From positions 15,581-79,580 of the forward strand of contig JABJOE010000005.1 in assembly GCA_018664485.1 (NCBI GenBank): a stretch of DNA of 64,000 nucleotides, read 5' to 3'. Under the pieces are notes generated by a model. That model ran no database searches and was not told the origin of the DNA. It saw only the letters and a list, made by a program, of their open reading frames with translations. Of the stretch, positions 690-57,706 are shown piece after piece (position 1 is the stretch's first letter; each line of letters opens with the position of its first letter). The position numbers were made by a program, and so were the translations under genes. This stretch comes from Candidatus Uhrbacteria bacterium. GTDB taxonomy: Bacteria; Patescibacteriota; Patescibacteriia; UBA9934.

Positions 690-843
690 ATTGCGTTCTT
701 TCGGAAGAATTTTGTCTTTAGAACATTTCAGATTGTAAGTCTGTGATGTTTTGGGGATAATCCTCAATGATACTTTCAGGGTTCGTAAATCGAACTACTG
801 ACTCACACGATCATTCTGATCGACACCCACCTACGAGGCCACT

Positions 844-1782
844 ATGGACACTCGCATGATTAACAGTCTGACGTACGACGAAACCAAGTCGCTTGCAGCC
901 TACGACGACGAGAATCCGAATGCGCGGCAGCGCGATCGAAGAGCTCATATCATTAGCATTCGTGCCATGGCACGGAAAGCCCGTAGGAAAAGGGGCTTGA
1001 GGTTACCGGCTGTGCGTCGACTTACTCCTCGACAAGGTCGTGATATGTGGCTCAGCGTTCCGACGCAAGACCATACATCCGATCCAGATCTCTTCGAGCA
1101 TATGGAGGGCAGGGCATACTGTGGACCGCGGATTGCTCACGCAATGAGCTACCAGTACCCAGAATCCGACTTCGACAGAACCAACGGCCTAGTGTCTACT
1201 CGCACACGTTGTGACCACGATGGCGCCGTTCCTGGTCGGCGGATGGCCGATGAGGAGATTGATTATGATAGGCTCTTGCTGGATGCTCAGTCACGTGCTT
1301 GCGTGGCGTTGAACAATGGCGAGTGTGAGTACAACCGGTCTCATGATGTGAGTTTGTATGTCGGCGGTGAGCATGTTCGGGTAACAAGCTGGCGAAGCCG
1401 AGATAACGGCGCACTGAACATCTTTGCATACAGCAAGTGGCTGGATGAGTTGGTGATCGACCGTGTGGCGACTAGAGCAATGGCGGACGATGTATTCGTT
1501 CCGAGGCACGTACTCCTTGCGAGTCATACCAGTTTTCTTGGAGCCACAAATTTCGATACGTGGTGGCTGAGCAGCATGGCAAAAAGGCATGGGTACAAAG
1601 ATCCTGATGGATACGCGGGTCTATATGTTGAAGAGTTAATGCCCGAGGTGATGTACGCACGCCCAGATCCTCGAAATTGGCGAAAGGGCCGTTCGTCCGC
1701 TCGCTTGAAACGAGATGATGAAGTTGAGGGTGACGTGTCTGCGACGCTCACCCAAGAGGCTACCGAGTGTGCTCCTCTGTGA
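844..1782 (+). CDS. hypothetical protein (GC-rich segment, Arg-rich N-terminus)
   Basis: 312-aa ORF in ORF track; markedly higher GC than flanks; no motif recognised; overlapped by several antisense ORFs typical of GC-rich DNA. Confidence 0.45.
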   Translation: MDTRMINSLTYDETKSLAAYDDENPNARQRDRRAHIISIRAMARKARRKRGLRLPAVRRLTPRQGRDMWLSVPTQDHTSDPDLFEHMEGRAYCGPRIAHAMSYQYPESDFDRTNGLVSTRTRCDHDGAVPGRRMADEEIDYDRLLLDAQSRACVALNNGECEYNRSHDVSLYVGGEHVRVTSWRSRDNGALNIFAYSKWLDELVIDRVATRAMADDVFVPRHVLLASHTSFLGATNFDTWWLSSMAKRHGYKDPDGYAGLYVEELMPEVMYARPDPRNWRKGRSSARLKRDDEVEGDVSATLTQEATECAPL

Positions 1783-1892
1783 GCTCGTGAAGCACTACCA
1801 CTCCGCGCGCGTCGTTCCATACTCGGGACGACGCGCTCTGTGCATAGAGCTCGATTATTCGTACTTTGCGCGCAGATTAAGTAAAATAACTG

Positions 1893-1921
1893 TTGACGAA
1901 AGTGACAGCCTGGAGCATACT
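1893..1921 (+). promoter_or_regulatory. promoter TTGACGAAAG-N-CATACT
   Basis: TTGACG 1893-1898, 17-nt spacer, CATACT 1916-1921, ~85 nt upstream of RRM gene. Confidence 0.35.
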
Positions 1922-2008
1922 TTTACTGCTCTCTTGTTAGATGGGAACCTATCGTTGGTTCCTTGTTCAAACCGAGAGAAGTCTTATTCATAGTTCGACA
2001 CTCTTGTT

Positions 2009-2260
2009 ATGAACAACAAGCTATTTGTCGGCAGTTTGCCATGGGCAGTTGATGACCAGTCTTTGAACGACCTCTTCGCTACATACGGAGAAGTTCTCTC
2101 AGCTCGTGTTGTTACTGACCGTGACTCAGGACGTTCACGTGGATTCGGTTTTGTCGAGTTCGCTGATGACGCTTCTGCACAGGCTGCCATTGATGCGATG
2201 GACGGTGCTGACGTCGAAGGACGCAACATCACAGTTTCCGTTGCAAAGCCAAAGGAATAA
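2009..2260 (+). CDS. RRM-type RNA-binding protein (RNP-1 RGFGFVEF, RNP-2 LFVGSL)
   Basis: 83-aa ORF with canonical RNP-2 (LFVGSL) and RNP-1 (RGFGFVEF) motifs of bacterial glycine-poor/RRM RNA-binding proteins. Confidence 0.85.
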   Translation: MNNKLFVGSLPWAVDDQSLNDLFATYGEVLSARVVTDRDSGRSRGFGFVEFADDASAQAAIDAMDGADVEGRNITVSVAKPKE

Positions 2261-2276
2261 ATTTGGTAAACAAAAC

Positions 2277-2299
2277 GAGGCCGCAAGGTCTCTTTTTGT
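2277..2299 (+). terminator. rho-independent terminator GAGGCC-GCAA-GGTCTC + T5
   Basis: 6-bp GC stem with GNRA loop followed by TTTTTGT immediately after RRM gene stop. Confidence 0.7.
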
Positions 2300-2541
2300 A
2301 ATCTAGAATATATTATTGGGCCAGTAATTCACTCCTGCGGTGAATTGCTTAAAACTTCGGCCATGGTATCTTGTTAAGAATTTCCTGGATTGCAGGCGTA
2401 GAGTCCATATTGGCGTTTTGTTTATGGGAGGGAGGGGGTTAGAATGAGGGAATAATAGCTTATTTATAAGTAGTTAACTATTGCCAATAATGGTCAAATC
2501 GGCTACTATCATGTCGCATTGAGTGATGTGTATTATCTTAT

Positions 2542-2632
2542 AGGGGAGTAGCTCAGCTGGTAGTCCAGCCCCTCATGAGAGGCTGGATTCAGTAGAGGTC
2601 TCCACCCAGCCCTTCTAGAAGAGCTGGGTCCA
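2542..2632 (+). pseudogene. truncated 5' copy of tRNA-Trp (acceptor 5' strand, D arm, anticodon stem-loop) with two hairpin insertions; no T arm or 3' acceptor
   Basis: 2542-2563 AGGGGAGTAGCTCAGCTGGTAG matches tRNA-Trp 2901-2922 (21/22); GTAGAGGTCTCCA conserved; insert 1 TCCAGCC-N10-GGCTGGA (2564-2587) in D-loop; insert 2 CCCAGC-N12-GCTGGG (2605-2628) splits anticodon loop with TCCA/TCCAA flanking duplication; nothing downstream can form T arm. Confidence 0.6.
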
Positions 2633-2645
2633 AGACCACGTTTAC

Positions 2646-2894
2646 ATGTTCTATGTCTATTTGTTAAAAAGTGATCGGGGTACAATGTATATAGGGTATA
2701 CATCGGACCTTGTGCGAAGGGTTGCTGAACATAAAAATAGATCAGTATTTTTTACTAAAAGACATAAACGATGGGACCTGGTCTATTACGAGGCTTACCT
2801 CACGAAGGCGGCTGCACAAGATCGGGAAAGAAAGTTGAAACAATATGGATCGGCTTACCATGGCCTGTTAAGGCGAGTAGACGAAAATAGATAG
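2646..2894 (+). CDS. GIY-YIG nuclease family protein (YhbQ/COG2827-like, 82 aa)
   Basis: FYVYLLKS...YIGYTSDLVRRVAEH...LVYYE pattern of stand-alone GIY-YIG domain proteins. Confidence 0.8.
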   Translation: MFYVYLLKSDRGTMYIGYTSDLVRRVAEHKNRSVFFTKRHKRWDLVYYEAYLTKAAAQDRERKLKQYGSAYHGLLRRVDENR

Positions 2895-2900
2895 TATTAT

Positions 2901-2976
2901 AGGGGAGTAGCTCAGTTGGTAGAGTAGAGGTCTCCAAAACCTTTGGTCGCAGGTTCAAGTCCTGTCTCCCCTGCCA
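2901..2976 (+). tRNA. tRNA-Trp (anticodon CCA)
   Basis: Acceptor AGGGGAG/CTCCCCT perfect, D arm GCTC-AGTTGGTA-GAGT, anticodon stem GAGGT/ACCTT loop CTCCAAA (U33, CCA, A37), T arm GCAGG-TTCAAGT-CCTGT, discriminator G, CCA encoded; 76 nt. Confidence 0.8.
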
Positions 2977-4266: not shown

Positions 4267-4305
4267 GATTTGTACGTACGATCCTACTAAAAATGGTTTT
4301 CCGAT

Positions 4306-4337
4306 AATCTTCACGAGGAATCGTGGAGATTTTTTGT
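4306..4337 (+). terminator. rho-independent terminator ATCTTCACG-AGGAAT-CGTGGAGAT + T6 (copy 1 of a 32-nt repeated terminator)
   Basis: 9-bp stem (one G-U) + TTTTTTGTT; near-identical copy at 4897-4928. Confidence 0.7.
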
Positions 4338-4377
4338 TTGTGATTATGCTTTAAATTGTACGTCTTTAGCCCAATAG

Positions 4378-4406
4378 GTTGACAAAAGCCTGTTTTTTTG
4401 CTATAT
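4378..4406 (+). promoter_or_regulatory. promoter TTGACAAAAG-N13-TATATT
   Basis: TTGACA 4378-4383, 17-nt spacer, TATATT 4401-4406; AGGAAA RBS-like before ATG 4445. Confidence 0.55.
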
Positions 4407-4444
4407 TATTTTGTTCTTTCAACCATCAAACCCAAGTAGGAAAC

Positions 4445-4762
4445 ATGGAAACTGTAGCAGTCGTGCATAGTAATGATGTGGGTGTCTTCGTCAGGGATGG
4501 CCTTTACATTTCGAGTGTCGAAGGCCCGCGAGACCAGTCACGCACTGTCACTTTTCCAGATGGTACCCGTACCATGCGTGCTACTACCCATCAGCAAGAA
4601 AATTGTACTCTGTGGGTGACCACAGGTGGTCGGGTGTACTGTCAGGGCTATCGCAGACCCGGCAATCCAACCCGCAGGCTCAGGTCCTACAATCAAGACA
4701 CTCTCCATGATCTGTTCGGTTCCCTCATCCTCCCACGTGATTTCTGGGGGCTCCGTACTTGA
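4445..4762 (+). CDS. hypothetical protein (GC-rich cassette; start at METVAVVH)
   Basis: ORF 4379..4762 trimmed to ATG 4445 downstream of promoter/RBS; by-eye GC clearly above the flanks (not computed); no known motif. Confidence 0.45.
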   Translation: METVAVVHSNDVGVFVRDGLYISSVEGPRDQSRTVTFPDGTRTMRATTHQQENCTLWVTTGGRVYCQGYRRPGNPTRRLRSYNQDTLHDLFGSLILPRDFWGLRT

Positions 4763-4896
4763 TTCGCACTAAGCCGCACCATATAGAGATCGCTTCGGCG
4801 CCTCCTCTCCGGTGCGGTCTTCTATTTGAAATATTTATGGGTAGTGTAAAGTTCGAGCGGTAGTTATAGATTATTCAGATGGCGAGAGCTAAAATC

Positions 4897-4928
4897 ATCT
4901 TCACGAGAAATCGTGGAGATTTTTTGTT
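4897..4928 (+). terminator. rho-independent terminator (copy 2 of repeated terminator)
   Basis: ATCTTCACG-AGAAAT-CGTGGAGAT + TTTTTGTT; one substitution in loop relative to copy 1. Confidence 0.7.
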
Positions 4929-7338: not shown

Positions 7339-7409
7339 AACGAAAACCGCCCATGACAAGCGCCAGGGGCGGTCGTCGGGGGCGGCGAGGGAACTGCGTG
7401 GGGACGGAA

Positions 7410-7670
7410 TCAGGCTCCCAGCTCATCGAGACATTCATCAACGAGGCTCTTGATATCTTTGTCGACATCAGCGAGCTGGCTGAATGGGGCAAGCGCCTTG
7501 CGAACATCTGCCAGTGAGGTGAAGCGGAGGGTCACGAGCGGCCATTTTACCACCACTCCGTGCGTTCCTCTTCCGCCGTCTGTGACACTGACTCGTGCCT
7601 CTATCCGAACATTGGTGGCTACGTATACCCATCCAGTCAATTCTGCATGGGAGGGTTCTTGGTGGGCCAT
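7410..7670 (-). CDS. hypothetical protein (GC-rich island)
   Basis: Track ORF 7410..7739 trimmed to Met (MAHQEP) downstream of minus-strand promoter 7711-7740. Confidence 0.4.
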   Translation of the reverse strand: MAHQEPSHAELTGWVYVATNVRIEARVSVTDGGRGTHGVVVKWPLVTLRFTSLADVRKALAPFSQLADVDKDIKSLVDECLDELGA

Positions 7671-7710
7671 GGGATCTCCGTGGGTGGATTTGCTTACGTG
7701 TTGGTAGGAT

Positions 7711-7740
7711 AATCTATCACAAAAAAGCCCTTTTGTCAAG
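7711..7740 (-). promoter_or_regulatory. promoter TTGACAAAAG-N13-TAGATT (minus strand)
   Basis: complement of 7735-7740 = TTGACA; 17-nt spacer; TAGATT = complement of 7711-7716. Confidence 0.5.
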
Positions 7741-7874
7741 GTATATAGGGTTAATGCGCAATAATAGAGTTATCAAAAACACCACCTTAATAAGGTGGTG
7801 TTTGGCGCTAGAAACACAATGGCGCTGTACAGGGGGAGTTACCCGCTGCACAGCGCCAGAAGCGACCGAGTCGC

Positions 7875-8417
7875 TTACTCGTATACTCGCGTCATGACCA
7901 ATTCCCCTACAATGAGGTGGTCGCCGTAGACCTCATGGTCAAGTACCCAGAGCTCGCCTCTGATCGAGGAGAGGTCCAAGTCGTCGGACGATCCGTCAAA
8001 TCGGAGGTTGAACCGGTGTTTTCCTTTTTGCAAGGTCAAGTCGATCTGTACCTCTACCATCCCGTCGTCTGGGCAGTAGACAGCTCGCTCAATCTCGCGC
8101 AGGCACATCACCGTTTCATCAAGGCCGTACTGAGTACACCCGAGGTCTTCTCCCCGGATCTCTCCCCAGTATTGCACCCAGTCGCCATATGCCCCGGTTT
8201 CGGGACTCGGCTCTGTTGCGTAGCTGAGTTGAAAACCTACACCTTCTTTGGTGCCCTGCCACTGGTCGGTTCTATTGTCTCCAACATTTACCGACGGAAG
8301 ATCGGTTGGCCGTTCTGTACAGTTGTCTGACAATGCCAGCCTATCGGGAGCCTGACAGCCAATGTACAGCCCGGCGGTTAGGGGTACAAGCCCCCTAACC
8401 AACCGGTGGAAATTCAT
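7875..8417 (-). CDS. secreted hypothetical protein (signal peptide, several Cys; GC-rich island)
   Basis: N-terminal hydrophobic leader LVPLTAGLYIGC; no known domain. Confidence 0.5.
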   Translation of the reverse strand: MNFHRLVRGLVPLTAGLYIGCQAPDRLALSDNCTERPTDLPSVNVGDNRTDQWQGTKEGVGFQLSYATEPSPETGAYGDWVQYWGEIRGEDLGCTQYGLDETVMCLREIERAVYCPDDGMVEVQIDLTLQKGKHRFNLRFDGSSDDLDLSSIRGELWVLDHEVYGDHLIVGELVMTRVYE

Positions 8418-8419
8418 CG

Positions 8420-8965
8420 CTACCAGCCACCGCTGCCAGCACCACCTCGGTACGTACCGCTACCCGCGGTACTGCGTTCCGCGACGTCGCAGCTCAACGA
8501 GTAGTTGTCGTAGGTGTAGCCCTCGGGGTCGACTTCTTCTTCCAGGCGGACGCGAATCGTCGCGTCCAGCCTGTCGCCGCTATAGCCGCGGCCAGTACAC
8601 CAGGTTTCGTCTTCATCGTCTGGGTCGCCAGACTCGGGGTACTCATCGAACCAGAGCGCACCGTGCACGGACTCGCTGAAGGTCACGCCATCTGGGACGC
8701 AGATGCCCGCGAACGCGTTGCCGTTGGGCAGGTTCGTGGGGTCATCCGAGTCCTCAAGCCAGTCGAAGAAGATCTCTTCGCCGAGGTTCGTGACGTTCAA
8801 CGTAGAGCTGGTTCCATGGAACAGTACAGGGTCGATGTCCACGACCAAGCGGAGGTGGTACTGACCTTCGCATTGGCGAGGGCTCTTTTCGGTACAATCC
8901 GACATGGTGGTGAGGAGGGCGAAAGAAAGGACAGAGGCGGTACCGTTCATCAGTTTTATCTCCAC
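8420..8965 (-). CDS. secreted hypothetical protein (signal peptide, acidic, Gly/Ser-rich C-terminus; GC-rich island)
   Basis: N-terminal signal-like SVLSFALLTTMSDC; adjacent to 7875..8417 in same orientation. Confidence 0.5.
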   Translation of the reverse strand: MEIKLMNGTASVLSFALLTTMSDCTEKSPRQCEGQYHLRLVVDIDPVLFHGTSSTLNVTNLGEEIFFDWLEDSDDPTNLPNGNAFAGICVPDGVTFSESVHGALWFDEYPESGDPDDEDETWCTGRGYSGDRLDATIRVRLEEEVDPEGYTYDNYSLSCDVAERSTAGSGTYRGGAGSGGW

Positions 8966-9085
8966 TGATGATTTGGATAGTCGGCCGGTATGTCTCCAAT
9001 CCGGAGGCGACTATCAATAACTTAACCACTACTACCTAGGCAAAACGCTTCGGTACACAGGTGGATTAGAACCACAAGCAGTGGG

Positions 9086-9114
9086 AACTTACGCTAATAT
9101 TGGCCTTTTGTCAA
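9086..9114 (-). promoter_or_regulatory. promoter TTGACAAAAG-N13-TAAGTT (minus strand)
   Basis: complement of 9109-9114 = TTGACA, 17-nt spacer. Confidence 0.4.
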
Positions 9115-9259
9115 GGGTACTATGGGTTGCTGCAAGTAAAAGCGCCTCGTGTGTTAAAGGGTTACATTCGTTATAAAGAAAAGGCAGTGATTAGATTCTT
9201 ATTTTTGAAAAACAAGAGCGCACCCGACGAGACGGCAACGCCAGATGGCTCTTGCTGTC

Positions 9260-9640
9260 TCACACAGATGCGCGAGGCGTAAAGATGTATTCGGGTTTTG
9301 GTTCCTCACCGTCTTTACCTTTTTTGCAGATGAGTGAGGCTTGAACATGGAGTTCTTCGCCATCGTCGCGACGAATGAATACGTAGACTGCCTCCTCGTA
9401 GTCGTCGGACGAATGCACTGGCATTTTCGTAGCGTCAGTGATACGGAGTACATCGACCTCTTCGTACTCGCCAGTTTCTTGATTGAAGTAGCGGGCACGG
9501 ACACCTTGGCAGAGCCCATGACGTGCTAAATCCCTTCCTGCTTCCACCACAGGTTCCCACATGGTTATGTAGGGTGGTTTTTCAGGACGCTGCGCCCTTG
9601 GTCTTCTGTCGTTTACGATAGGTGTATTGTGGTCAAGCAT
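9260..9640 (-). CDS. hypothetical protein (GC-rich island)
   Basis: 126-aa ORF; minus-strand TTGACAATAAAG-N-TAGTCT promoter ~40 nt upstream. Confidence 0.45.
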   Translation of the reverse strand: MLDHNTPIVNDRRPRAQRPEKPPYITMWEPVVEAGRDLARHGLCQGVRARYFNQETGEYEEVDVLRITDATKMPVHSSDDYEEAVYVFIRRDDGEELHVQASLICKKGKDGEEPKPEYIFTPRASV

Positions 9641-9750
9641 GCGGCCTCCGGGTTGAAAGATATGCGCGACAGATGAGACTAACGTACAAAGGCTTTATTG
9701 TCAATGCTTGGCCGATAGCCTTTCTAGTTAAATTTCAAGCGCTTAATCTA

Positions 9751-19352: not shown

Positions 19353-19381
19353 TTGACAAAAGGGTGTTTTTGTGGTAGTAT
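19353..19381 (+). promoter_or_regulatory. promoter TTGACAAAAG-N13-TAGTAT
   Basis: TTGACA 19353-19358, 17-nt spacer, TAGTAT 19376-19381; preceded by hairpin GACCTCC-GGAA-GGGGGTC + TTTT (19329-19349) that may terminate hup. Confidence 0.5.
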
Positions 19382-19428
19382 TTTCCGTCCGATCACTAGC
19401 GTCTTTGCTATATCGACAAAGGAGGCTC

Positions 19429-19881: not shown

Positions 19882-19989
19882 GCGACCCACCGACCACCCC
19901 GTCGTAGACCCTTGTGCGCATAGCGTATGAGGGTCTTCCGCATTTAGGCTATACCCGTCAGTATTGTTAGGTTTAGCCTCTGTGGTAAT

Positions 19990-38360: not shown

Positions 38361-38984
38361 TTAGGGTCTCGGTACTCTCATCGGAGAGGGCACCGGAATA
38401 TTAGATGTGACGAGGCAGAACTTTATATGGTCTGCGGCGCTCATGAGGATCATCATGTACAGGTCATGCCATGGATGATTGCGGTCCAAGATCAGAGCAG
38501 GAAAGAGCTTGTACAGATCCATGTCAGCATCTTTCCCGTGCTCAACGGTGTGAGCTATGATTACGGGTTTTACTGTCGGGTTGAAGGTGTCGACGTGTAT
38601 TAACCGCATGAGCATGTCGATGAGCTTCTTGTGTACGCTCTTCAGCCTTCCCCCGAGTGTACCAATCAAGGCTCTGAGCGTGTCCTGATCTCCACCTCGG
38701 GCAACGGTGAGTCCTGACTCGTCGATACTGAGGGTGTATTCTCCGGGCTTGAGTTTCGCATGTGGCAGAAGCGAATCTCTTGTAAAGTCGTGTAGGAACA
38801 TACTCTCCTCGCTGCACCCAGGAGCATTCATTTTCAGTTCTGCGGACTCATCGTCGCTGATTGTCACGGTGAGCGTGAGCACTACATGCTTCTCACTAGC
38901 TAGACCGTAGGCACGGCGCTCATTGTCATCCATGTACCGAAGGATACTCATCGGCAGATCTACGAAGGGGAAGAGGTTGGGCAT
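38361..38984 (-). CDS. hypothetical protein, paralog of 39181..39924 (GC-rich island)
   Basis: shares KPGEYTL/TPGTYTL and NHPWHDL/KDPWHEL blocks with neighbour. Confidence 0.5.
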   Translation of the reverse strand: MPNLFPFVDLPMSILRYMDDNERRAYGLASEKHVVLTLTVTISDDESAELKMNAPGCSEESMFLHDFTRDSLLPHAKLKPGEYTLSIDESGLTVARGGDQDTLRALIGTLGGRLKSVHKKLIDMLMRLIHVDTFNPTVKPVIIAHTVEHGKDADMDLYKLFPALILDRNHPWHDLYMMILMSAADHIKFCLVTSNIPVPSPMRVPRP

Positions 38985-39084
38985 GATTTCTCCAGATGGA
39001 TTGTGGAAAGGACGAACGTAAATTAACGTACAGAGCAGTTATTATCAAAGCTTAGCGGATAAAATAGATTTTTAAAATAGCGAA

Positions 39085-39111
39085 CCCCCTGAACGCAAGA
39101 CGTTCAGGGGG
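39085..39111 (-). terminator. terminator CCCCCTGAACG-CAAGA-CGTTCAGGGGG (perfect 11-bp stem) with T-rich tail on minus strand
   Basis: downstream of 39181..39924 on minus strand. Confidence 0.65.
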
Positions 39112-39180
39112 CGAGGCTGTGTTGACTCTACATTCGTAGAGTTGGCTACGTGCCAGCTCTTCTGAGCTCAGAGATCTAGG

Positions 39181-39924
39181 TCACTCGGTCGGTGTAAGCT
39201 CATCGCGGATCGCCGCGATGCGCGCGTCCATCGAAGCGAGGGTGCTGCCGATGACGGTGTCGCGGTGGGTGCTCAAAGCCTGTTGAGCCGCAGCGGTCAT
39301 GAGGGCCTTCTCCAACTCGTGCCAGGGATCTTTGTGGCTGCTCACCGTGTAGATGGCCAGTGGGCCCGACGAGCTCGGTACATCTCCCGAAATTCGGATG
39401 TCCAGGCCCATGTCGCGACTCGAGAGCTCGCGGATCATGTCAATCGCGATTCGACAGGGGCAAGCGGCATTGGGCTCTGGGATGGAGATGTCGGTACCGG
39501 AGGTCGCCATGCGGAGCACATGCTTCGCCAGGAGAACAATCATTGCCTCCTCGACGGATTCCCAGTGGATCATGGCGCCGAGCATGCCCTCGAGGTCGGT
39601 GAGGGGGGCATGGAGATCACGACGGACCGCTTGAAAGAGGCGCTCGGCCGTACGATCATCGGGACCCGACCTCTCGGTGCTCTCAAAGGTCTGGAATTGT
39701 AGGGTGTATGTTCCGGGTGTCAGGTCCTCCAGGTCGTTGATACTTCCCACAAGGGTTTCACGCCACATGTCACCGAGTCTGCCGGTGGGGTTGGGGCTCA
39801 TGGTGAGGGACGGGTCACCCTCGCCGATCTCGACGGCAAGCGTCATGACGGGCTCTTCGGGGTTGGTGAATCCGATATCTACAGTGAGTGGTCCGGGGGT
39901 AAGGGCAGCAAGAATGTGCTTCAC
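39181..39924 (-). CDS. hypothetical protein, paralog of 38361..38984 (GC-rich island)
   Basis: 247-aa ORF; promoter TTGACAAAAA ~45 nt upstream. Confidence 0.5.
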   Translation of the reverse strand: MKHILAALTPGPLTVDIGFTNPEEPVMTLAVEIGEGDPSLTMSPNPTGRLGDMWRETLVGSINDLEDLTPGTYTLQFQTFESTERSGPDDRTAERLFQAVRRDLHAPLTDLEGMLGAMIHWESVEEAMIVLLAKHVLRMATSGTDISIPEPNAACPCRIAIDMIRELSSRDMGLDIRISGDVPSSSGPLAIYTVSSHKDPWHELEKALMTAAAQQALSTHRDTVIGSTLASMDARIAAIRDELTPTE

Positions 39925-39968
39925 GGTGATCCAGGGTGTTTGTTGTTATGTTCGCGAGGAACGACGAA

Positions 39969-39997
39969 ATCCTATAGTAAAATAAGGTTTTTGTCAA
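39969..39997 (-). promoter_or_regulatory. promoter TTGACAAAAA-N13-TAGGAT (minus strand)
   Basis: complement of 39992-39997 = TTGACA; 17-nt spacer; TAGGAT = complement of 39969-39974. Confidence 0.5.
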
Positions 39998-41620: not shown

Positions 41621-42022
41621 CTACAGGTATGAGCCTGAGAGTATGCCGAGAAAATAGAATGCGATCATACTGAGAAGTATCGCGCCAAGTACATGGCCAT
41701 GGAGATACATTCTCATGAATTTTCCAAACTGATTATTCCTGAGCCGATGGAAGTGCGTTTGCCAGTCGCTGTTGTAGCGATGGAATTCGTAGACATCGTC
41801 CGAGATCTTGAGTTGGCTCGTAGGGTCTTGATCCGGGAATTCAAGCATATAGTGGTTGAAGAGTTCACAAAATTCCTCACTCTCGTATGCTGAGTCGAGA
41901 ATGTACCAGGTGAGCATTCTCCTAAGCACCCACTCTCGATACGTGGTAAGTGGGTGGAGGGCTACGTTTGCGATGGTCATCAAGATGCCACGATGCTCTT
42001 CGGCGCCATTACCGGGATTCAT
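41621..42022 (-). CDS. hypothetical protein with C-terminal TM
   Basis: 133-aa ORF, no recognised motif. Confidence 0.4.
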   Translation of the reverse strand: MNPGNGAEEHRGILMTIANVALHPLTTYREWVLRRMLTWYILDSAYESEEFCELFNHYMLEFPDQDPTSQLKISDDVYEFHRYNSDWQTHFHRLRNNQFGKFMRMYLHGHVLGAILLSMIAFYFLGILSGSYL

Positions 42023-42240
42023 AATCTACCAACTTATGGGAACGTGGTGAATGTACAGATTGCGGACGAGGTGTCCGACGCAGAAGTTTGCCATTTCTTA
42101 GTGTTATTGTCAATATATAGGGCTATTGCTTGACGAGAAGGGGGTTATTTGCTATTCTTTTGCCGTTAAATAAGGAACGCCTGCTAAGGTTATAAATCGT
42201 CATAGACGTGCCAATTGCAGCGATAATCCCACACTTGCGT

Positions 42241-42644: not shown

Positions 42645-42665
42645 ATACGCAACCGGGTTGCGTAT
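42645..42665. repeat. second copy of 21-nt palindrome ATACGCAACCGGGTTGCGTAT (A5 upstream, so terminator-like on minus strand)
   Basis: identical to 21195-21215. Confidence 0.6.
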
Positions 42666-42762
42666 AGTAAAGGTGGGTAGTATTGACCGTTTGGTCATTT
42701 TTTGATAAAACGCGCTAGCACTTAGGAGGTGGCATATTAACAGAGTAAACGATCGGACGACC

Positions 42763-43650
42763 GTGAAGGTCCTTCGATATCTCATCGCTTCAATCTTGAC
42801 CGGTTTGGTCATAACAACTTGCGGAGTACTCATCCTCGGATCGGTTTGGAAAGCCTGGTACGTCTATCTGGTTCTTTTTCTCCTGCCCGGCATGCCGAAT
42901 CCGGCGAATCTCATGGCTTGGCCATGGAGCGCTGGAATCACGCATTCGATGCGGTGGCTGTTGAAGATCAATCTCGTGGTCAAGAACCATACGGATCTCC
43001 CACGCGGACGACCAGTAGTCCTGATCTGCAATCATCCGCCAGCGGCGTTCTTCCCGATCCTCGTGTGGGCGTCGATGACGAACCTTCGCTTGCTCCCGGT
43101 AGTTGTGAGCAAGGCGAGTAATCTGTGGAACGCGCTTCTGGCGATAGTGATTTTTCCGTCACTCGTGATGAAGGCTCTGATGGTGACGACGCGTGGCAAT
43201 GGGTGGGGTGCGTGGCTTGTCGAGAAACTCTCGCGGCTGATGGTGACTCGCTGGTCTATGCTGATTATCTTTGCCGACGCTCATCGTCCTGAGTCGAAAA
43301 AGGCTCTTGCCGACTACGAGCGCATGGTGGAGGTTGTGCCCAGTATTCAGTATCAAGATAGACTCGGCGCGTATCACTATGCGGGTGTGTATTCTGCACT
43401 GAAGGCACTTGGGCTCAATGCTTCGGTAGTCGCGGCTACAATGTCGTTCCCTCGTGGAGCTACTGGTTGGAAAGCTCCGTGGCGTGTGTACGGTGAAACG
43501 ATCGCCATTCGTATACGCGACGTGACACACATCTTTCAGTCAGCGATGCTTGAGGAGGTGGGTGAGGGTGGGCGACCTACAAAGTTCATCGAAGCTATCA
43601 ATGATCTCGCATGTGATGAGGACTCTTGGATCATCACTCGAAATCGCTAG
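42763..43650 (+). CDS. hypothetical membrane protein, weak acyltransferase-like (NHPP block but no HX4D) (GC-rich island)
   Basis: N-terminal TM helices, CNHPPAAFFP reminiscent of PlsC motif I without the Asp; uncertain. Confidence 0.3.
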   Translation: MKVLRYLIASILTGLVITTCGVLILGSVWKAWYVYLVLFLLPGMPNPANLMAWPWSAGITHSMRWLLKINLVVKNHTDLPRGRPVVLICNHPPAAFFPILVWASMTNLRLLPVVVSKASNLWNALLAIVIFPSLVMKALMVTTRGNGWGAWLVEKLSRLMVTRWSMLIIFADAHRPESKKALADYERMVEVVPSIQYQDRLGAYHYAGVYSALKALGLNASVVAATMSFPRGATGWKAPWRVYGETIAIRIRDVTHIFQSAMLEEVGEGGRPTKFIEAINDLACDEDSWIITRNR

Positions 43651-43719
43651 AGTGCCATATGTCGGCAAAACGACTTACGACCGCCCATCTCCGGGCGGTC
43701 GTTGTGCATCTGCGTGGAT

Positions 43720-47307: not shown

Positions 47308-48444
47308 ATGAGGAAACGTACGCAAGCATTCGTCAGAAGCACCCAGGCATTGATCGGATCCGTTATAGGGGTCGGAATTTTTGGTATTCCTTATGTTTTT
47401 GCTCAAGCCGGGGTAGGGATCGGTTTGATTTACTTGATTGTGCTAGGTGGTGTGAACTTGCTGATGCTCCTTGCATACGTAGATATTGTAGTAAACACAA
47501 ACGGTCATCATCGATTAGTCGGAAATGTAAAGGAATATCTGGGAGATCATTGGGGGTGGTTGATGACGATAGCGCTCTTTTTCAGCTCATGGGGAGCGAT
47601 GGTTGCGTACATTATCTTGGGTGGGGAGTTCCTTCATTCGATTATCTATCCATTAACTGGAGGTACAGTTTTCCAGTTTCAAATTTTGTTTGCTGTAGTT
47701 TTTGGCTTTTTGTTGATCGGTGGCTTGAGTATGATTTCCCGCTTGGAAGTCGTATTTGTGTTCGCACTGCTCATCATGTTGGTACTCATTATGGTAGGCG
47801 CTTTGCCGCATGCTGATGTTTCCAATTTGTTGGAGTGGAATACAGAGAGTGCATTCTTGCCGTTTGGAATTGTTCTGTTCGCGTTTGGAGGGTTGGCAGT
47901 GCTACCTGAAATGAAAGACATACTTGGAAAGAATAAAAGTTTACTTAGACCATCTGTTGTTCTTGGGTTTGCGACGATCGCTCTTATGTATGCACTCTTT
48001 GCAACGATAGTAGTGTCTGTTACAGGTGCCGCTACAACACAGGAGGCAATTCTAGGTTTGGGAGAGGTGATTGGTGATTGGGCTGTCACACTTGGTTCAT
48101 TAATTGGGTTTGTAGCTGTAGGAACAAGCTTCTTGATTTTGGGTGTTCAGATCATGAATAGTTTTATGTATGACTATAAACGTCGATACATGCTGTCATG
48201 GGCTTTTGCCGGTGGTGTGCCGGTCGTCGTGTTCTTGCTGGGTGCACGGGACTTTATTGATGTTATCGGATTTACCGGTGGAGTGCTCGCGTCACTCGTT
48301 GGGCTGATTACGATCCGAATGTATTTAAAAGCGAAAGTTCATGCATGCACCCCAAAACGTTGTTTGGCTATTCCTAGCTGGGCAATGTATTTGGCGAGTT
48401 TGATTTTGTTTGCCGGGATGATCGCTACGATCGTCGGGCTTTAG
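47308..48444 (+). CDS. amino acid transporter (Trp/Tyr permease / AAAP-like), 11 TM
   Basis: GSVIGVGIFGIPYVFAQAG N-terminal motif of aromatic amino acid permease family; start at ATG 47308. Confidence 0.65.
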   Translation: MRKRTQAFVRSTQALIGSVIGVGIFGIPYVFAQAGVGIGLIYLIVLGGVNLLMLLAYVDIVVNTNGHHRLVGNVKEYLGDHWGWLMTIALFFSSWGAMVAYIILGGEFLHSIIYPLTGGTVFQFQILFAVVFGFLLIGGLSMISRLEVVFVFALLIMLVLIMVGALPHADVSNLLEWNTESAFLPFGIVLFAFGGLAVLPEMKDILGKNKSLLRPSVVLGFATIALMYALFATIVVSVTGAATTQEAILGLGEVIGDWAVTLGSLIGFVAVGTSFLILGVQIMNSFMYDYKRRYMLSWAFAGGVPVVVFLLGARDFIDVIGFTGGVLASLVGLITIRMYLKAKVHACTPKRCLAIPSWAMYLASLILFAGMIATIVGL

Positions 48445-48534
48445 AGGATGATTTTAATGGCTGAATATAAATATACTACGCTTACTATTTTGGCCTGAAA
48501 TAAGGCTTTTTTTGTTTATTCTAGTCACTTGCTA

Positions 48535-48563
48535 TTGACAAAAGTGCTAATATAGGCTATAGT
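48535..48563 (+). promoter_or_regulatory. strong promoter TTGACAAAAG-N13-TATAGT driving a GC-rich non-coding unit
   Basis: TTGACA 48535-48540, 17-nt spacer, TATAGT 48558-48563. Confidence 0.6.
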
Positions 48564-48569
48564 CTTTTT

Positions 48570-49143
48570 ATCAGAATCAGAAAAGAGACATAAACTTCTA
48601 GGACACTGGTTGCGAATCAATACATGGTTCTCGAGCATCGTTCTAGAAGAAGGAGTCTGGCAACATATAAGGTTTGCCACCTATACACCCCAACTGTGGC
48701 TGTGCCAGATGGAGCACACGCTAAACCTGCTGACCTGTTTAAGCTGTCCGCTGTACGACCCCGAGGTCGTCGACTGTAAGATACGATCCCTTCGGGATTC
48801 GTAAGTAGGATGCGCCCCTTGGGAGCGCAAAAGCAGAGTAAGCTCGCTAGTCAATATTGATAAGTATCCGGGTGAGCGGAGTTATCATGGACTGGTAGAT
48901 GCACCCTGAAGAAGGGTTTCTCACCACACGCGGGCCACTTGCCCAATCTGTTGACGAATACGACGAAAATTAGCCTTGGCGATGGCTCTGTTCTTAAGTG
49001 AGCGGGGTCATCGCCCCACGTCTCCTTGTGGGGACGTTCACGTAGTATGCGGCGCCTTCTCATTTGGGGGCGTCGCGTTTATTTTTGTACGGTAATATGT
49101 AGCTACGATCATCGGGCTTTAAAAATCGCGAGTAAACAAAAAA
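48570..49143 (+). ncRNA. candidate ~580-nt structured non-coding RNA (class unidentified)
   Basis: GC-rich segment with multiple GC hairpins (e.g. GATCCC-TTC-GGGATT, CCCCAC-N8-GTGGGG), bounded by consensus promoter and bidirectional terminator; longest ORFs only 64/70 aa with implausible sequence despite high GC. Confidence 0.3.
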
Positions 49144-55642: not shown

Positions 55643-55678
55643 TGTTAGTAGGTTTTGCTATAAGAATTTAAATGCAAT

Positions 55679-55706
55679 GAATCCCGAACTAGGTTCGGGA
55701 TTCTTT
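55679..55706. terminator. terminator: perfect 11-bp hairpin GAATCCCGAAC-TAG-GTTCGGGATTC + TTTC
   Basis: between hpf copy 2 (+) and convergent small gene 55728..55874 (-). Confidence 0.65.
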
Positions 55707-55727
55707 CGTGCAAGACGAGGAGTTGTC

Positions 55728-55874
55728 TTACTCGTAGGTGTTTGCGGCCATTGCCTCGGTGATCACTGTCGCGACCACGTCGGCGCTCCCCAGGTTGTGA
55801 GTGTTGGCCTTCGCCATCAGAATGGCGATGACTACAATCAGGGCCACGATGACGTGGTGTGGGCGGATTTCCAT
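55728..55874 (-). CDS. small (48 aa) single-TM protein
   Basis: minus-strand ATG 55874 preceded by GGAGGT RBS and (CAA)10 leader; MEIRPHHVIVALIVVIAILMAKANTHNLGSADVVATVITEAMAANTYE; not in ORF track (<60 aa). Confidence 0.45.
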   Translation of the reverse strand: MEIRPHHVIVALIVVIAILMAKANTHNLGSADVVATVITEAMAANTYE

Positions 55875-55888
55875 TTTCCGTTACCTCC

Positions 55889-55922
<34 letters not shown>

Positions 55923-55926
55923 GGGG

Positions 55927-56103
55927 TCAGTCGATGTAGATGATCTCGCACGTGTCAGGTGGGGTCACCTTGCAGGTGGCTTCCGACCCTTTCTCGGCGA
56001 TGATCACAAGATTGCTTACTTCTCGCTCAGCAACATATCCGTGTACGAACATGCGACCGAAGAATGCGGCGAGCACCATTGCTGCAACCGTAAGGTGGCG
56101 CAT
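55927..56103 (-). CDS. small (58 aa) signal/TM peptide (MRHLTVAAMVLAAFFG...)
   Basis: GGAG RBS 5 nt upstream of ATG 56103; R1 repeat 35 nt upstream. Confidence 0.45.
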   Translation of the reverse strand: MRHLTVAAMVLAAFFGRMFVHGYVAEREVSNLVIIAEKGSEATCKVTPPDTCEIIYID

Positions 56104-56137
56104 TAAGTCTCCGGGGAATCGATGCATGTTGCATCTA

Positions 56138-56185
56138 GGTTCACGAAATGCAGGAACGTGTCGTGCACTTTGTGAACCCTTGGAG
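56138..56185. repeat. R1 repeat copy a (48 nt, internal inverted repeat GGTTCAC...GTGAACC)
   Basis: identical to 56958-57005. Confidence 0.85.
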
Positions 56186-56214
56186 GCTATCGGCGGTATA
56201 TCTTCAAATCTTTT

Positions 56215-56256
56215 GCCTCAGAGATCACGACGTAGTCATGGTCTCAATTGGCGGCC
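56215..56256. repeat. R2 repeat copy a (42 nt hairpin element GCCTCAGAGATCACGAC-GTAG-TCATGGTCTC-AATTGGCGGCC)
   Basis: four copies with compensatory substitutions in the stem. Confidence 0.8.
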
Positions 56257-56298
56257 ACAGAAAGATTCCTGGGCCTAGGGGAGATGACGGTTGCCATC

Positions 56299-56505
56299 TC
56301 AGAAGATGAAGTAGTGCCGGTTGGTGATGTCTTCACCGTTTTCTGCGATGTCGGGGGTGGGCAGGGCCTCGATCGAGTCGAGTGCCTCGACCAGAGCAGG
56401 GCTCAAGTCGGGGGACATCACAGCCTTGAGGGCAGCGTTGTCGTCGGTGGTGGTTGAGGTTCCGGTGCTCAGAGCGAGCAGAACGGCAAGGATGGTGTTG
56501 GACAT
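56299..56505 (-). CDS. small (68 aa) secreted acidic peptide (MSNTILAVLLALSTG...)
   Basis: signal-peptide-like N-terminus; track ORF trimmed to internal Met. Confidence 0.4.
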   Translation of the reverse strand: MSNTILAVLLALSTGTSTTTDDNAALKAVMSPDLSPALVEALDSIEALPTPDIAENGEDITNRHYFIF

Positions 56506-56584
56506 ATTGTCCTCCGTTGTGGGGTGGGTGGGTGTCACCAAGCATGTAATGACACTTACTCAACTCACAACTTTTATTTGCATC

Positions 56585-56626
56585 GCCTTGGAGGTCACCA
56601 GCTAGTGATGATCTCAGTTGGCGGCC
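56585..56626. repeat. R2 repeat copy b (diverged)
   Basis: GCCTTGGAGGTCACCAG-CTAG-TGATGATCTC-AGTTGGCGGCC. Confidence 0.7.
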
Positions 56627-56681
56627 TAGAGAGATGATTCTAGGACCACGGTTGAAGAGTGAAGGAAGGTTGGTTGGTAGT

Positions 56682-56927
56682 TCAGGCAGGTGTTCCTTGG
56701 TACATCGTCCCGAAGGCCAGGAGGAGCAAGAACATCTTGGCCAGAACCATCATGCTGCCGCCCCAGATTGCGGTCGCTCCACGATCGTAGTGGGGCATAC
56801 GACGCATCCGAATCATCAGGATGGCGGCGATGGTCAGCGATGCGGCGAAGCCGACGCTGGAAGTAGTGATGCCTGCATCGGTGCAGAGCATGGCGAGAAA
56901 TTCAGCTTTGAGTTGGGTCGGGGTCAT
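56682..56927 (-). CDS. small (81 aa) two-TM membrane protein (MTPTQLKAEFLAML...)
   Basis: GGAG RBS 6 nt upstream of ATG 56927; R1 copy b 30 nt upstream. Confidence 0.45.
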   Translation of the reverse strand: MTPTQLKAEFLAMLCTDAGITTSSVGFAASLTIAAILMIRMRRMPHYDRGATAIWGGSMMVLAKMFLLLLAFGTMYQGTPA

Positions 56928-56957
56928 GGTGGCTCCAGTGTGATGCATATGCATCGA

Positions 56958-57005
56958 GGGTTCACGAAATGCAGGAACGTGTCGTGCACTTTGTGAACCC
57001 TTGGA
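56958..57005. repeat. R1 repeat copy b
   Basis: 48/48 identical to copy a. Confidence 0.85.
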
Positions 57006-57020
57006 GCTCGTATTACGTAT

Positions 57021-57064
57021 TGCCTCAGAGATCACCACAAGCATGTGATGGTCTCAATTGGCTG
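57021..57064. repeat. R2 repeat copy c
   Basis: GCCTCAGAGATCACCAC-AAGCA-TGTGATGGTCTC-AATTGGCTGG; G-C to C-G covariation at stem position 9. Confidence 0.75.
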
Positions 57065-57101
57065 GTAGTTGGACAAGAAATGTCCGCGTACCAAGTGCTG
57101 T

Positions 57102-57281
57102 TTAGCCTGTGATCATCATGAGGAAGAACAGACCGCCGAGCATCGTGCCCCCGATCAGGAAAAGTACCGTGATTAGTGCTTTCGCTAAATCTTCGTCCTT
57201 TCGTGTTTTTTCTTCTTGTGATCTGATTCTGATCTCGTTGGCTCGTTTCTGCTCATAACTTGGCTGGCGTCGTTTTCTCAT
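57102..57281 (-). CDS. small (59 aa) tail-anchored membrane protein (basic N-terminus, C-terminal TM)
   Basis: MRKRRQPSYEQKRANEIRIRSQEEKTRKDEDLAKALITVLFLIGGTMLGGLFFLMMITG; not in ORF track (<60 aa). Confidence 0.4.
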   Translation of the reverse strand: MRKRRQPSYEQKRANEIRIRSQEEKTRKDEDLAKALITVLFLIGGTMLGGLFFLMMITG

Positions 57282-57327
57282 TGCTTCTACCTATTCGGGT
57301 TACTGCCCGATATGTGGAGGCGTATTT

Positions 57328-57369
57328 GCCTCAGAGATCACGACATAGTCATGGCCTCAATTGGCAGCC
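57328..57369. repeat. R2 repeat copy d
   Basis: GCCTCAGAGATCACGAC-ATAG-TCATGGCCTC-AATTGGCAGCC. Confidence 0.75.
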
Positions 57370-57424
57370 GCGGAACAGTGAAGTTCCGCGGCAGTCAGCT
57401 ACGTAGTAACGCAGGTGATGGGCC

Positions 57425-57628
57425 TCAGAGGGAGGCGAGGACATCAGGATTGATGTCGTTGGTCCGGGGCGTGATGCCCATGACCGGGATGGTCGCGCCG
57501 CCGTTGGGCTGGAGCGAGTCCATGGTGTCGCTGAGCTTCACCATGGACTCGTGCATTTCGTAGCACGGAATGGCGAACCCGCCGATGGTGAGTGCGAAAG
57601 CGAGGCCGAGGTGAATGATTCGAGTCAT
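57425..57628 (-). CDS. small (67 aa) secreted/lipoprotein-like peptide (MTRIIHLGLAFALTIGGFAIPC...)
   Basis: GGAGA RBS 6 nt upstream of ATG 57628; track ORF trimmed. Confidence 0.45.
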   Translation of the reverse strand: MTRIIHLGLAFALTIGGFAIPCYEMHESMVKLSDTMDSLQPNGGATIPVMGITPRTNDINPDVLASL

Positions 57629-57677
57629 GATGGATCTCCGAGTTGTAGTGCACTGAGTTGTGCTTGATCCTGACCTA

Positions 57678-57706
57678 ATAGTAGCACGTTTTAGCACTTT
57701 TGTCAA
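57678..57706 (-). promoter_or_regulatory. promoter TTGACAAAAG-N13-TACTAT (minus strand) heading the small-peptide array
   Basis: complement of 57701-57706 = TTGACA; 17-nt spacer; TACTAT = complement of 57678-57683. Confidence 0.5.

Follow-up and report, generated by a model that had tools for sequence, protein, structure and literature searches.

Genomic islets are known by a deviant base composition, a patchy presence among relatives, the use of a few permissive sites, occasional direct repeats and cargo without known function, often related to the cell surface, and both orphan open reading frames (ORFs), or ORFans, and acquired genes are, as Daubin, Lawrence and Ochman are said to have found, usually AT-richer than the core genome. 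Bacteria of the candidate phyla radiation (CPR) have tiny genomes, depend on host cells and encode many proteins without known function; the means by which they gain and replace their host-facing genes are, to our knowledge, poorly understood. In this study we describe a window (the whole stretch of DNA analysed, 64 kb, positions 15,581 to 79,580 of contig JABJOE010000005.1) from a metagenome-assembled genome (MAG) of Candidatus Uhrbacteria, in which short promoter-bearing ORFan units, here called islands, make up about 17% of the sequence. Between related genomes these units give way to others in the same small set of slots; they are GC-richer than their host, unlike the usual AT-rich foreign DNA, and are best read as behaving like genomic islets with reversed GC polarity, the foreign-looking genes being GC-richer than the core. 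A full-text search of the literature found no description of such a pattern in CPR bacteria. As to where the islands come from, we lean, with modest confidence, towards exchangeable accessory cassettes drawn from an Uhrbacteria-level gene pool that is GC-richer than the host.

The islands share with genomic islets all of the traits listed above. They differ from them in being GC-richer than the core, in their size of 0.4-2.3 kb, in having no mobility gene, in a promoter that is the consensus of the recipient clade, and in their donors, which appear to lie within the same candidate phylum. Measured against a classical genomic island, they show the deviation in composition and codon usage and the sporadic distribution, but neither mobility genes (in the ORFs scanned) nor a size above about 10 kb, the units being of islet scale. 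Nor do they resemble miniature inverted-repeat transposable elements, insertion sequences or repetitive extragenic palindromic elements, as an all-against-all blastn comparison of the islands found only the promoter, about 30-40 nt, in common. According to one report, the lgr genes of Protochlamydia amoebophila are 5-kb leucine-rich-repeat paralogues that are GC-rich in the lower-GC genome of a host-dependent bacterium (PMC2216083). The islands resemble the lgr genes in forming a gene set conspicuously GC-richer than the genome of a host-dependent bacterium, and differ from them in that the island genes are small and mutually unrelated apart from one weak tandem pair.

The first-pass annotation of the window had reported at least nine GC-rich segments embedded in a low-GC backbone, and computation bears this out: the nine pooled (10.8 kb) have 54.2% GC against 43.8% in the remainder and 45.5% in the whole window, and the GC profile is not uniform. 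When the GC content of each segment was compared with backbone windows of equal size, we obtained 52.3% (z 4.2) for 700-1800 (island 1), 52.5% (z 2.7) for 4440-4860 (island 2), 54.2% (z 7.0) for 7340-9660 (islands 3a to 3d), 55.6% (z 4.9) for 19200-19940 (island 4), 56.8% (z 6.5) for 23950-25040 (island 5), 55.5% (z 6.9) for 38300-39960 (island 6), 53.5% (z 4.6) for 42700-43700 (island 7), 50.5% (z 2.3) for 48570-49110 (island 8) and 54.0% (z 6.4) for 55700-57650 (island 9). Seven of the nine are GC-richer than all backbone windows of their size, islands 2 and 8 being the weakest. All nine segments stand, with island 8 the least pronounced, but the first block extends to about 2257, where it takes in a conserved RRM gene that is no ORFan, and a tenth unit (ORF 41621-42022) had gone unlisted.

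GC at third codon positions (GC3) is 0.49-0.84 in island ORFs and 0.30-0.45 in backbone genes, and GC at first and second positions (GC1 and GC2) is also raised in the islands. Most of the GC3 excess is third-position C (C3), which stands at 0.30 in islands versus 0.15 in the backbone for plus-strand genes and at 0.40 versus 0.20 for minus-strand genes, G at this position being up by just 0.05-0.07. Within four-fold families, NNC codons are three to five times commoner in islands than in the backbone (GGC 0.33 versus 0.09, ACC 0.40 versus 0.10, CCC 0.33 versus 0.06, CTC 0.41 versus 0.12). The relative synonymous codon usage (RSCU) of the islands is slightly anticorrelated with that of the host backbone (r=-0.13), and comes much closer to that of the backbones in GC-rich Uhrbacteria (r=0.65-0.71; e.g. 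L050, L013, L029, L036 and L017; here and below, L-numbers denote loci of relatives and P-numbers homologue clusters of island proteins). The compositional effect is regional and reaches beyond codons alone, as island leaders, untranslated regions (UTRs) and intercistronic spacers have 45-55% GC, against 38.6% in backbone intergenic DNA. The GC-normalised dinucleotide distance (delta* x1000) between islands and backbone is 84 (null 30 +/- 10, at most 76), and two halves of the island set are separated by just 42, so that the islands have one common compositional regime. Where the annotation had left a choice between a different origin and strong selection on composition, a different origin is best supported by the anticorrelated RSCU, the dinucleotide distance and the GC-rich non-coding parts; expression-linked codon selection drops out, and strong selection on composition of another kind stays in contention, island 7 being GC-rich in three genomes. 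Island units are split 6 to 6 between the strands, whereas backbone genes favour the plus strand 25 to 9, and the plus strand carries an excess of G over nearly the whole window.

Each island consists of one or more stand-alone transcription units at the boundaries of conserved housekeeping operons, and about a dozen such units are present. A unit begins with a sigma-70 promoter, usually TTGACAAAAG-N13-TAnnnT, continues with a short leader and one to six small ORFs (in one case with a structured RNA) and closes with a GC-rich hairpin terminator. GC climbs within about 100 nt downstream of the -35 box, and the hairpins that end most units are very stable (-18 to -30 kcal/mol), in agreement with the earlier statement that strong terminators delimit them. 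The motif TTGACRAAAG-N13-TAnnnT occurs 10 times in the window versus 0.26 expected; eight copies point inward at island edges (661+, 4379+, 7739-, 9114-, 19353+, 39997-, 48535+ and 57706-), and the remaining two precede the RRM and typA genes. The proposal that this promoter drives every island holds for seven of the nine, but island 5 has a degenerate copy and island 7 just TTGACC-N17-TAAAAC; in addition, unit 3d within island 3 has the TTGACAATAAAG variant. In relatives the extended motif precedes rlmN (L091, L092) and rplU (L031, L032) and is therefore an Uhrbacteria-wide consensus, as the annotation had supposed in calling it the host's own; an island-specific promoter was rejected on these grounds, the link between the motif and downstream GC being weak (20 sites in relatives, p about 0.05). 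The further step that had been taken from a host-type promoter to long residence of the cassettes does not follow, since the promoter is common to Uhrbacteria and cassettes arriving from relatives would carry it, and since islands 3, 4, 6 and 8 are absent or replaced in relatives.

Turnover at fixed slots is seen when the window is set beside its relatives, which were retrieved through the ClpB-like gene and are nearly all Uhrbacteria or Patescibacteria MAGs. The order tgt - g35207 - clpB - wecA - duf192 - rplU ... recR - ybaB - dnaB - permease - folD is kept in dozens of Uhrbacteria. Of 80 relatives, most have clpB next to wecA, with a usual spacing of 17-60 bp, where the window holds the 1.7-kb island 6. 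The closest relative, L004 (ClpB 83% identical), lacks island 6 and has an unrelated 465-bp gap between the two genes, and L006 has in this slot a different minus-strand gene (246 aa, pentapeptide-repeat-like by eye) of 60% GC versus 44% for clpB and wecA, preceded by the identical promoter at the identical 32-bp distance to wecA. Between duf192 and rplU, the place of the unlisted tenth unit here, L004 has an unrelated 141-aa membrane ORF (GC3 0.85), and after the permease gene, where the window has island 8, a different GC-rich 132-aa ORF. Fast divergence of orthologues was rejected as the cause of these mismatches in L004, given the conservation of ClpB and given that proteins occupying one slot are unlike in length and, by eye, in predicted membrane topology. 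Elsewhere, the genes for HU and the LytR-family protein are direct neighbours, 87-223 bp apart, in L087, L032 and L035, so that island 4 is absent; the slot upstream of uvrD (island 5 here) holds unrelated GC-rich segments in L032 and L035; and the slot upstream of secA (island 9 here) holds other cargo after a minus-strand copy of the promoter in L019 and L021. L091 and L092, whose RlmN is 77-78% identical to that of the window, have no homologues of the proteins of island 3.

Syntenic homologues elsewhere were found for islands 1 and 7 only. Island 7 is in the same slot in the window, L004 (49-50% identity) and L016 (27%), with a GC3 excess of +0.20, +0.14 and +0.08, respectively, and it is missing between rplU and recR in L006, L008, L010, L011 and L025. 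The comparison with related genomes that the annotation had called for thus gives a sporadic distribution, with islands 3, 4, 6 and 8 absent or replaced and islands 1 and 7 patchy. The cargo in the equivalent slots of relatives is GC-rich in most cases. Across the clade, which ranges from 38 to 65% GC, ORFan GC regresses on core GC over all loci with a slope of 0.74 and a crossing near 51%, so that ORFans exceed the core in GC where the genome is GC-poor and fall below it where the genome is GC-rich. A clade-wide rule that inserts are GC-rich was rejected, as the mean difference over 73 syntenic gaps is zero and inserts in high-GC genomes are GC-poor.

Direct repeats flank two of the islands. 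Island 2 lies between the copies of a direct repeat of 32-35 nt (4304-4338 and 4894-4928, one mismatch) that corresponds to the terminator hairpin of the upstream gene. Island 8 has on either side a 20-nt direct repeat, GCTACGATC(G/A)TCGGGCTTTA, whose first copy (48424-48443) is the 3' end of the permease gene and whose second copy is at 49102-49121; the copies represent the last 20 nt of that gene, with one mismatch and differing stop codons. Their flanking-repeat scores of 29 (island 2) and 17 (island 8) lie above the 95th percentile of the null (11). In addition, tRNA genes adjoin island 1, and the other islands have neither feature. These two islands resemble integrative elements that target gene 3' ends, as island 8 duplicates the end of the permease gene, including a stop codon, and leaves the gene intact, and island 2 duplicates the terminator hairpin upstream; they differ from such elements in that the inserts, of about 590 and 680 bp, are small and lack an integrase. 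The repeats could equally have arisen by single-crossover recombination at short homology.

A likeness to integron cassettes is seen in the small size (0.5-1 kb), in the mostly single-ORF and ORFan-rich content, in the repeats at islands 2 and 8, which hint at a circular intermediate, and in island 9, an array of tiny ORFs with a repeated imperfect hairpin. Unlike integron cassettes, however, the units are dispersed in both orientations and have their own promoter and terminator, and the window has no IntI (in the ORFs scanned), attI or Pc; no attC R/L boxes were seen, and by inspection the island 9 hairpins have no attC core.

If the islands are accessory cassettes, they would enter by horizontal exchange within an Uhrbacteria accessory pool that is GC-richer, notably in third-position C, than the 44% GC host. 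Incoming units would bring a promoter already recognised by that host, and since this promoter is the clade consensus they would be expressed at once. In a compact, operon-dense genome few intergenic slots would tolerate insertion, and because only operon boundaries would do so, the same slots would be used repeatedly and refilled with different cargo in each lineage. At least two units may have come in by way of an intermediate, circular or based on short homology, with duplication of 20-35 nt at the target, namely a terminator hairpin at island 2 and a gene 3' end at island 8. The cargo as predicted from the translations comprises lipoproteins, single-pass and polytopic membrane proteins, tiny membrane peptides and small soluble proteins (87-150 aa, in islands 2, 3a, 3d and 4), for which cell-surface, host-interaction or other niche-specific functions with rapid turnover are most likely. 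With about half of the products predicted to be lipoproteins, membrane proteins or secreted proteins, roles at the surface or in host interaction would fit an episymbiotic lineage.

Several observations weigh against such an origin. No donor genome was found that combines a close match to an island family with native composition of that family; L085 comes nearest, for island 3d. Family members are GC-richer than the local backbone in 7 of 8 other contexts, where a model of pool versus host predicts more exceptions. At four-fold sites, the GC of island 7 is 0.61 in the window and 0.66 in L004 versus 0.31-0.36 and 0.43-0.55 in the respective backbones, and since four-fold sites are nearly saturated between the two genomes (identity 0.31-0.37 versus 0.25-0.27 by chance), acquisition followed by amelioration should have wiped out this contrast. 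In L084, island 1 too is syntenic and GC-rich. In dinucleotide signature, no sampled Uhrbacteria locus comes closer to the islands than the host does. The scan for flanking repeats found them at two of the nine island intervals of the window and at none of the 13 cassettes examined in relatives, and they had to be rejected as a general trait of the units. No recombinase domain was found in the 20 backbone ORFs tested and no mobility family in the island ORFs tested, a scan that left out the small ORFs of islands 8 and 9 and some backbone genes. Either alleles of GC-richer donors have time and again overwritten the slots of islands 7 and 1, or their GC is upheld by a force specific to these genes.

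Extended to all islands, a force of this kind would make them resident lineage-specific genes whose high GC and C3 are maintained in place by GC-biased gene conversion, at accessory loci prone to recombination, or by selection on the mRNA (stability, structure, nuclease avoidance or non-optimal codons), and the contrast would be a property of the gene class and not the trace of a source. We consider this account unlikely, though deserving of serious attention. It handles well the case of island 7, which is GC-rich in the same slot of the window, L004 and L016 despite saturated synonymous sites, that of island 1, which is syntenic and far above the backbone in GC in the window as in L084, and the homologues that exceed local backbone GC in all but one of the eight other contexts. 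The signature common to the islands, the rise of GC so soon after the promoter, with UTRs and spacers included, and the very stable hairpins inside or ending many transcripts also speak in its favour. It sits poorly, however, with the absence or replacement of most islands in the syntenic slots of relatives, with the direct repeats that mark two islands as insertions, and with inserts that are GC-poorer than the backbone in high-GC relatives. The promoter precedes typA and, in relatives, rlmN and rplU without a downstream rise in GC, and island 7 is GC-rich without the extended promoter. Moreover, duf192 is equally fast-evolving (42% identity to L004) yet has backbone composition, so rapid evolution alone does not create the GC bias.

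Returning to exchanged cassettes, a more far-reaching proposal would be that Uhrbacteria, perhaps CPR bacteria more widely, maintain a 'plug-and-play' cassette economy, in which promoter-ORF-terminator units move among few operon-boundary slots, integrate at terminator hairpins or gene 3' ends via 20-35 nt identities with no recombinase in cis, and have a C3-rich and GC-rich composition actively maintained, by continual gene flow or biased conversion, whatever the GC of the host. We offer this as a long shot. If true, it would amount to a composition-marked accessory compartment with a polarity opposite to that of the AT-rich foreign DNA of most bacteria. Should the pattern of the window prove to be genome-wide, third-position C would provide a simple computational handle to separate the flexible compartment from the core in Uhrbacteria MAGs, and C3-rich genes would nominate candidates for surface and host-interaction functions. 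The evolutionary question then posed would be one of gene flow from GC-richer relatives versus a maintained gene-specific bias.

It is quite improbable, in our view, that the islands represent genes of recent or de novo origin, and in part non-coding RNAs, with long ORFs arising from the scarcity of stop codons in GC-rich DNA, so that some of the 'proteins' would be unreal. Such an origin would suit islands 4, 5 and 6a/b, which have no homologue at all, as well as island 8, where no ORF is convincing and folding is far more stable than in shuffled sequence, and long ORFs do occur in several frames and on both strands inside islands. Yet ORFs of 300-337 aa are unlikely by chance (about 4e-6 per start at 57% GC, by our estimate), the annotated frames show coding periodicity (GC2 lowest, GC3 mostly well above it), seven island proteins have homologues with conserved residue patterns, and the source of GC-rich raw DNA in a 44% GC genome would be left unexplained.

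Expression-linked codon bias, whereby strong promoters mark very highly expressed native genes with optimal codons, is in our judgement very improbable indeed. The promoters are near-consensus, and the islands favour C in two-fold pyrimidine-ending codons as highly expressed genes do (TAC, ATC and, less clearly, CAC), but in four-fold families the highly expressed genes of the window (HU, L21/rplU, L28, YbaB, RRM and HPF) favour T- or A-ending codons (GGC 0.06, ACC 0.03, CTC 0.10), where the islands favour C endings. These opposite preferences effectively refute translational codon selection as the cause and set the islands apart from a highly expressed gene class; in addition, GC1, GC2 and the non-coding parts are raised too, and typA has the promoter yet backbone composition. 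Although the source is a MAG, we give next to no credence to an assembly or binning artefact in which reads of a GC-richer organism were chimerically joined, given that four contigs from other samples, built independently and with other assemblers, are 100% identical to the window over the island/backbone junctions, that the same gene order and context are found on a 986-kb contig of the Joint Genome Institute (JGI), and that the island boundaries match promoters and terminators.

Known RNA genes were rejected as the source of the GC-rich patches, as Rfam at the gathering score gave three tRNAs only, and the best Rfam hit in the searches with islands 8 and 9 (E=0.03, far under the gathering score) places neither in a known structured RNA family. 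A phage origin, including that of a prophage remnant, was also rejected, the best PHROG match being sub-threshold (E=0.0037) and IMG/VR holding no relatives for the two island families searched. A viral scan for the hairpin of island 9 gave 14 single hits, as we would expect by chance.

The products had been described as hypothetical proteins only, and the island ORFs tested have indeed no significant Pfam, NCBIfam or PHROG match (sub-threshold matches only); the further description as mostly secreted, lipoprotein-like or membrane proteins fits roughly half of the translations, judged by eye, and not the rest. When seven island proteins were concatenated and compared exhaustively by phmmer with 1.84 billion cluster representatives, the search gave, besides self, one to three clusters each for islands 1, 2, 3a, 3b, 3c and 3d (30-48% identity), and for the island 4 protein no homologue but self. 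The proteins of islands 5 and 6b (247 aa) had self hits only among 5.8 billion proteins, the record for island 5 being HON52_01730, a hypothetical protein. In the seven island proteins with homologues, residue patterns are conserved.

Island 1 (661..1892, plus strand) has its promoter at 661-689 (TTGACAAAAG-N13-TAATTT) and an ORF at 844-1782 that encodes a 312-aa protein with a basic N-terminus and without signal peptide, and lies directly downstream of tRNA-Thr (41-116) and tRNA-Tyr (283-367). Its sole homologue cluster, P0010, is in L084, which repeats the arrangement of tRNA cluster, promoter, island 1 ORF and RRM gene; the homologue has 66.6% GC and GC3 0.90 in a backbone of about 50%. Between tRNA-Tyr and the island 1 promoter of the window is a 48-nt tandem duplication (450-497 and 528-575, 81% identical), both copies of which end in a T-run. 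In L084 the GC-rich region is larger (6467-9395), with a gene (GC3 0.92) for a 755-aa protein that contains a MopE-like copper-binding domain, and with an 81-aa ORF that follows another TTGACAAAAA promoter, beyond the tRNA cluster; a lower-GC serine-recombinase mobile element is present a few kb downstream.

The unit of the RRM RNA-binding protein follows (1893..2300, plus strand; promoter 1893-1921, ORF 2009-2260, terminator 2277-2292). The RRM gene is 92% identical in protein, 90% in nucleotides and 80% at third codon positions to L084 11471-11722, and the sole other backbone protein common to the window and L084 loci is about 58% identical; judged from these sequences, the similarity would imply strong constraint at the nucleotide level or recent exchange of that single gene. 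Further downstream, tRNA-Trp (2901-2976) is flanked by small ORFs at 2646-2894 (82 aa) and 3094-3405 (103 aa) that are GIY-YIG nuclease-domain-like, and an 18-nt fragment at 2548-2565, which resembles the 5' end of the tRNA-Thr and tRNA-Trp genes, may be the remnant of a tRNA-associated rearrangement.

Island 2 (4304..4928, plus strand) has a promoter at 4379-4407, an ORF at 4445-4762 (105 aa) and a hairpin of its own at about 4773-4818; its homologue P0018 is found in another context in L087 and L088, at 63.5% GC versus about 53%. The units of island 3 are all on the minus strand. Unit 3a (7346..7739) has a promoter at 7739-7711, an ORF at 7410-7673 (87 aa) and a terminator hairpin at about 7346-7386, and its homologues are P0012 and P0017, the copy in L086 having 53.5% GC, flanks of 38-39% and the identical promoter motif. 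Unit 3b/c (7778..9114, promoter 9114-9086) holds two lipoprotein-like ORFs in tandem, one at 8420-8965 (181 aa) and one at 7875-8417 (180 aa, with the lipobox LYIGC), and ends in two hairpins at about 7820-7858 and 7778-7803. These two genes are kept as a pair in L083 (P0015 and P0009, 32% and 44% identity; 56-61% GC versus about 49%), although in a different slot, between homologues of the window genes 11066 and 13525. Unit 3d (9213..9704) has the variant promoter at 9704-9676, an ORF at 9260-9640 (126 aa) and a hairpin at about 9213-9254; its family comprises P0011, P0013 and P0014, and on the GC-richer contig L085 the homologue is roughly backbone-like in composition. The AlphaFold2 model of the 3d protein is a small beta-barrel with a predicted local distance difference test score (pLDDT) of 68 and no match in the PDB better than E=0.09, and the model of the 3b protein (pLDDT 44) is unusable.

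Island 4 (19353..19989, plus strand) lies between the HU and LytR-family genes, with a promoter at 19353-19381 and an ORF at 19429-19881 for an acidic 150-aa protein. Island 5 (23872..25049, plus strand) has its degenerate promoter at 23872 (TTGACAAAAC), an ORF at 24026-25000 and a hairpin at about 25012-25049, and its protein (324 aa, or 337 aa with a start at 23987) consists of an acidic N-terminus, one transmembrane helix and a C-terminal domain. Island 6 (38303..39997, minus strand, promoter 39997-39969), between clpB and wecA, contains the ORFs 39181-39924 (247 aa) and 38361-38984 (207 aa), with hairpins at about 39085-39111 and 38303-38332. The tandem paralog pair that had been suspected in one of the islands is this one, and it is real, if weak (25% identity across 126 aa, E=1.5e-4). 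At 39969-40029, the reverse complement of TTGACAAAAA gives the TTGTCA -35 box to the divergent wecA promoter (TTGTCA-N17-TAAACT), so that the back-to-back promoters of island 6 and wecA use one -35 region; the identical 32-bp geometry recurs at L006 13521-13581, where the minus-strand cargo is different.

The tenth unit (41621..42113, minus strand), which has a weaker promoter at about 42113, encodes at 41621-42022 a 133-aa protein with a C-terminal transmembrane helix and GC3 0.60. Island 7 (42645..43702, plus strand) has TTGACC at 42683 and TAAAAC at 42706, an ORF at 42763-43650 and a hairpin at about 43677-43702; its product is a polytopic membrane protein of 295 aa with a sub-threshold match to Acyltransferase (E=0.005). 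The perfect 21-nt palindrome ATACGCAACCGGGTTGCGTAT occurs twice, with dissimilar flanks, at 21195-21215 right after the LytR-family gene and at 42645-42665 just upstream of the island 7 promoter, and may be a shared operator or terminator module.

Island 8 (48424..49121, plus strand) has a promoter at 48535-48563, a transcript at 48570-49092 and a terminator at about 49042-49082. The transcript of about 520 nt contains no convincing ORF, forms several stable hairpins and has an RNA fold z-score of -4.75; no Rfam family matched it even at relaxed thresholds, and no gene is called there in the JGI assembly. On the basis of predicted folding, island 8 looks like a novel structured RNA candidate of this length.

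Island 9 (55673..57706, minus strand) is an operon of six ORFs (57425-57628, 57102-57281, 56682-56926, 56299-56505, 55927-56127 and 55729-55875) with a promoter at 57706-57678 and a terminator at about 55673-55712. Its products of 48-80 aa have a hydrophobic segment in most cases. The first five ORFs are spaced by an imperfect hairpin of about 45 nt, present in four copies (GCCAAyTGAGryCATsAC-loop-GTsGTGAyCTCyrAGGC), copy 2 of which shows a compensatory G/C swap, and a 48-nt perfect repeat is also present (56138-56185 = 56959-57006). The hairpin element has no Rfam match and no copies in the fetched loci of relatives; it could be a site of RNA processing, protein binding or recombination. Directly upstream of the ribosome-binding site of the last ORF is a (CAA)11 microsatellite (55895-55930, minus strand), which could be an unstructured translational leader or a phase-variable tract.

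Among the products of the backbone between the islands are tRNAs, RlmN, a HI0933-like flavoprotein, a CMAS-type methyltransferase, a PIF1-like helicase, TypA, Fur, HU, the LytR-family protein, UvrD, UDP-glucose dehydrogenase, TGT, the ClpB-like protein, a WecA/MraY-like transferase, L21, RecR, YbaB, DnaB, FolD, SHMT, MurC, MurB, HPF and SecA. Also of backbone composition is the gene at 29871-33995 (plus strand) for a 1374-aa protein without significant Pfam match, which contains six tandem repeats of 396 nt (132 aa) with 62-92% identity and is probably a large repetitive surface protein.

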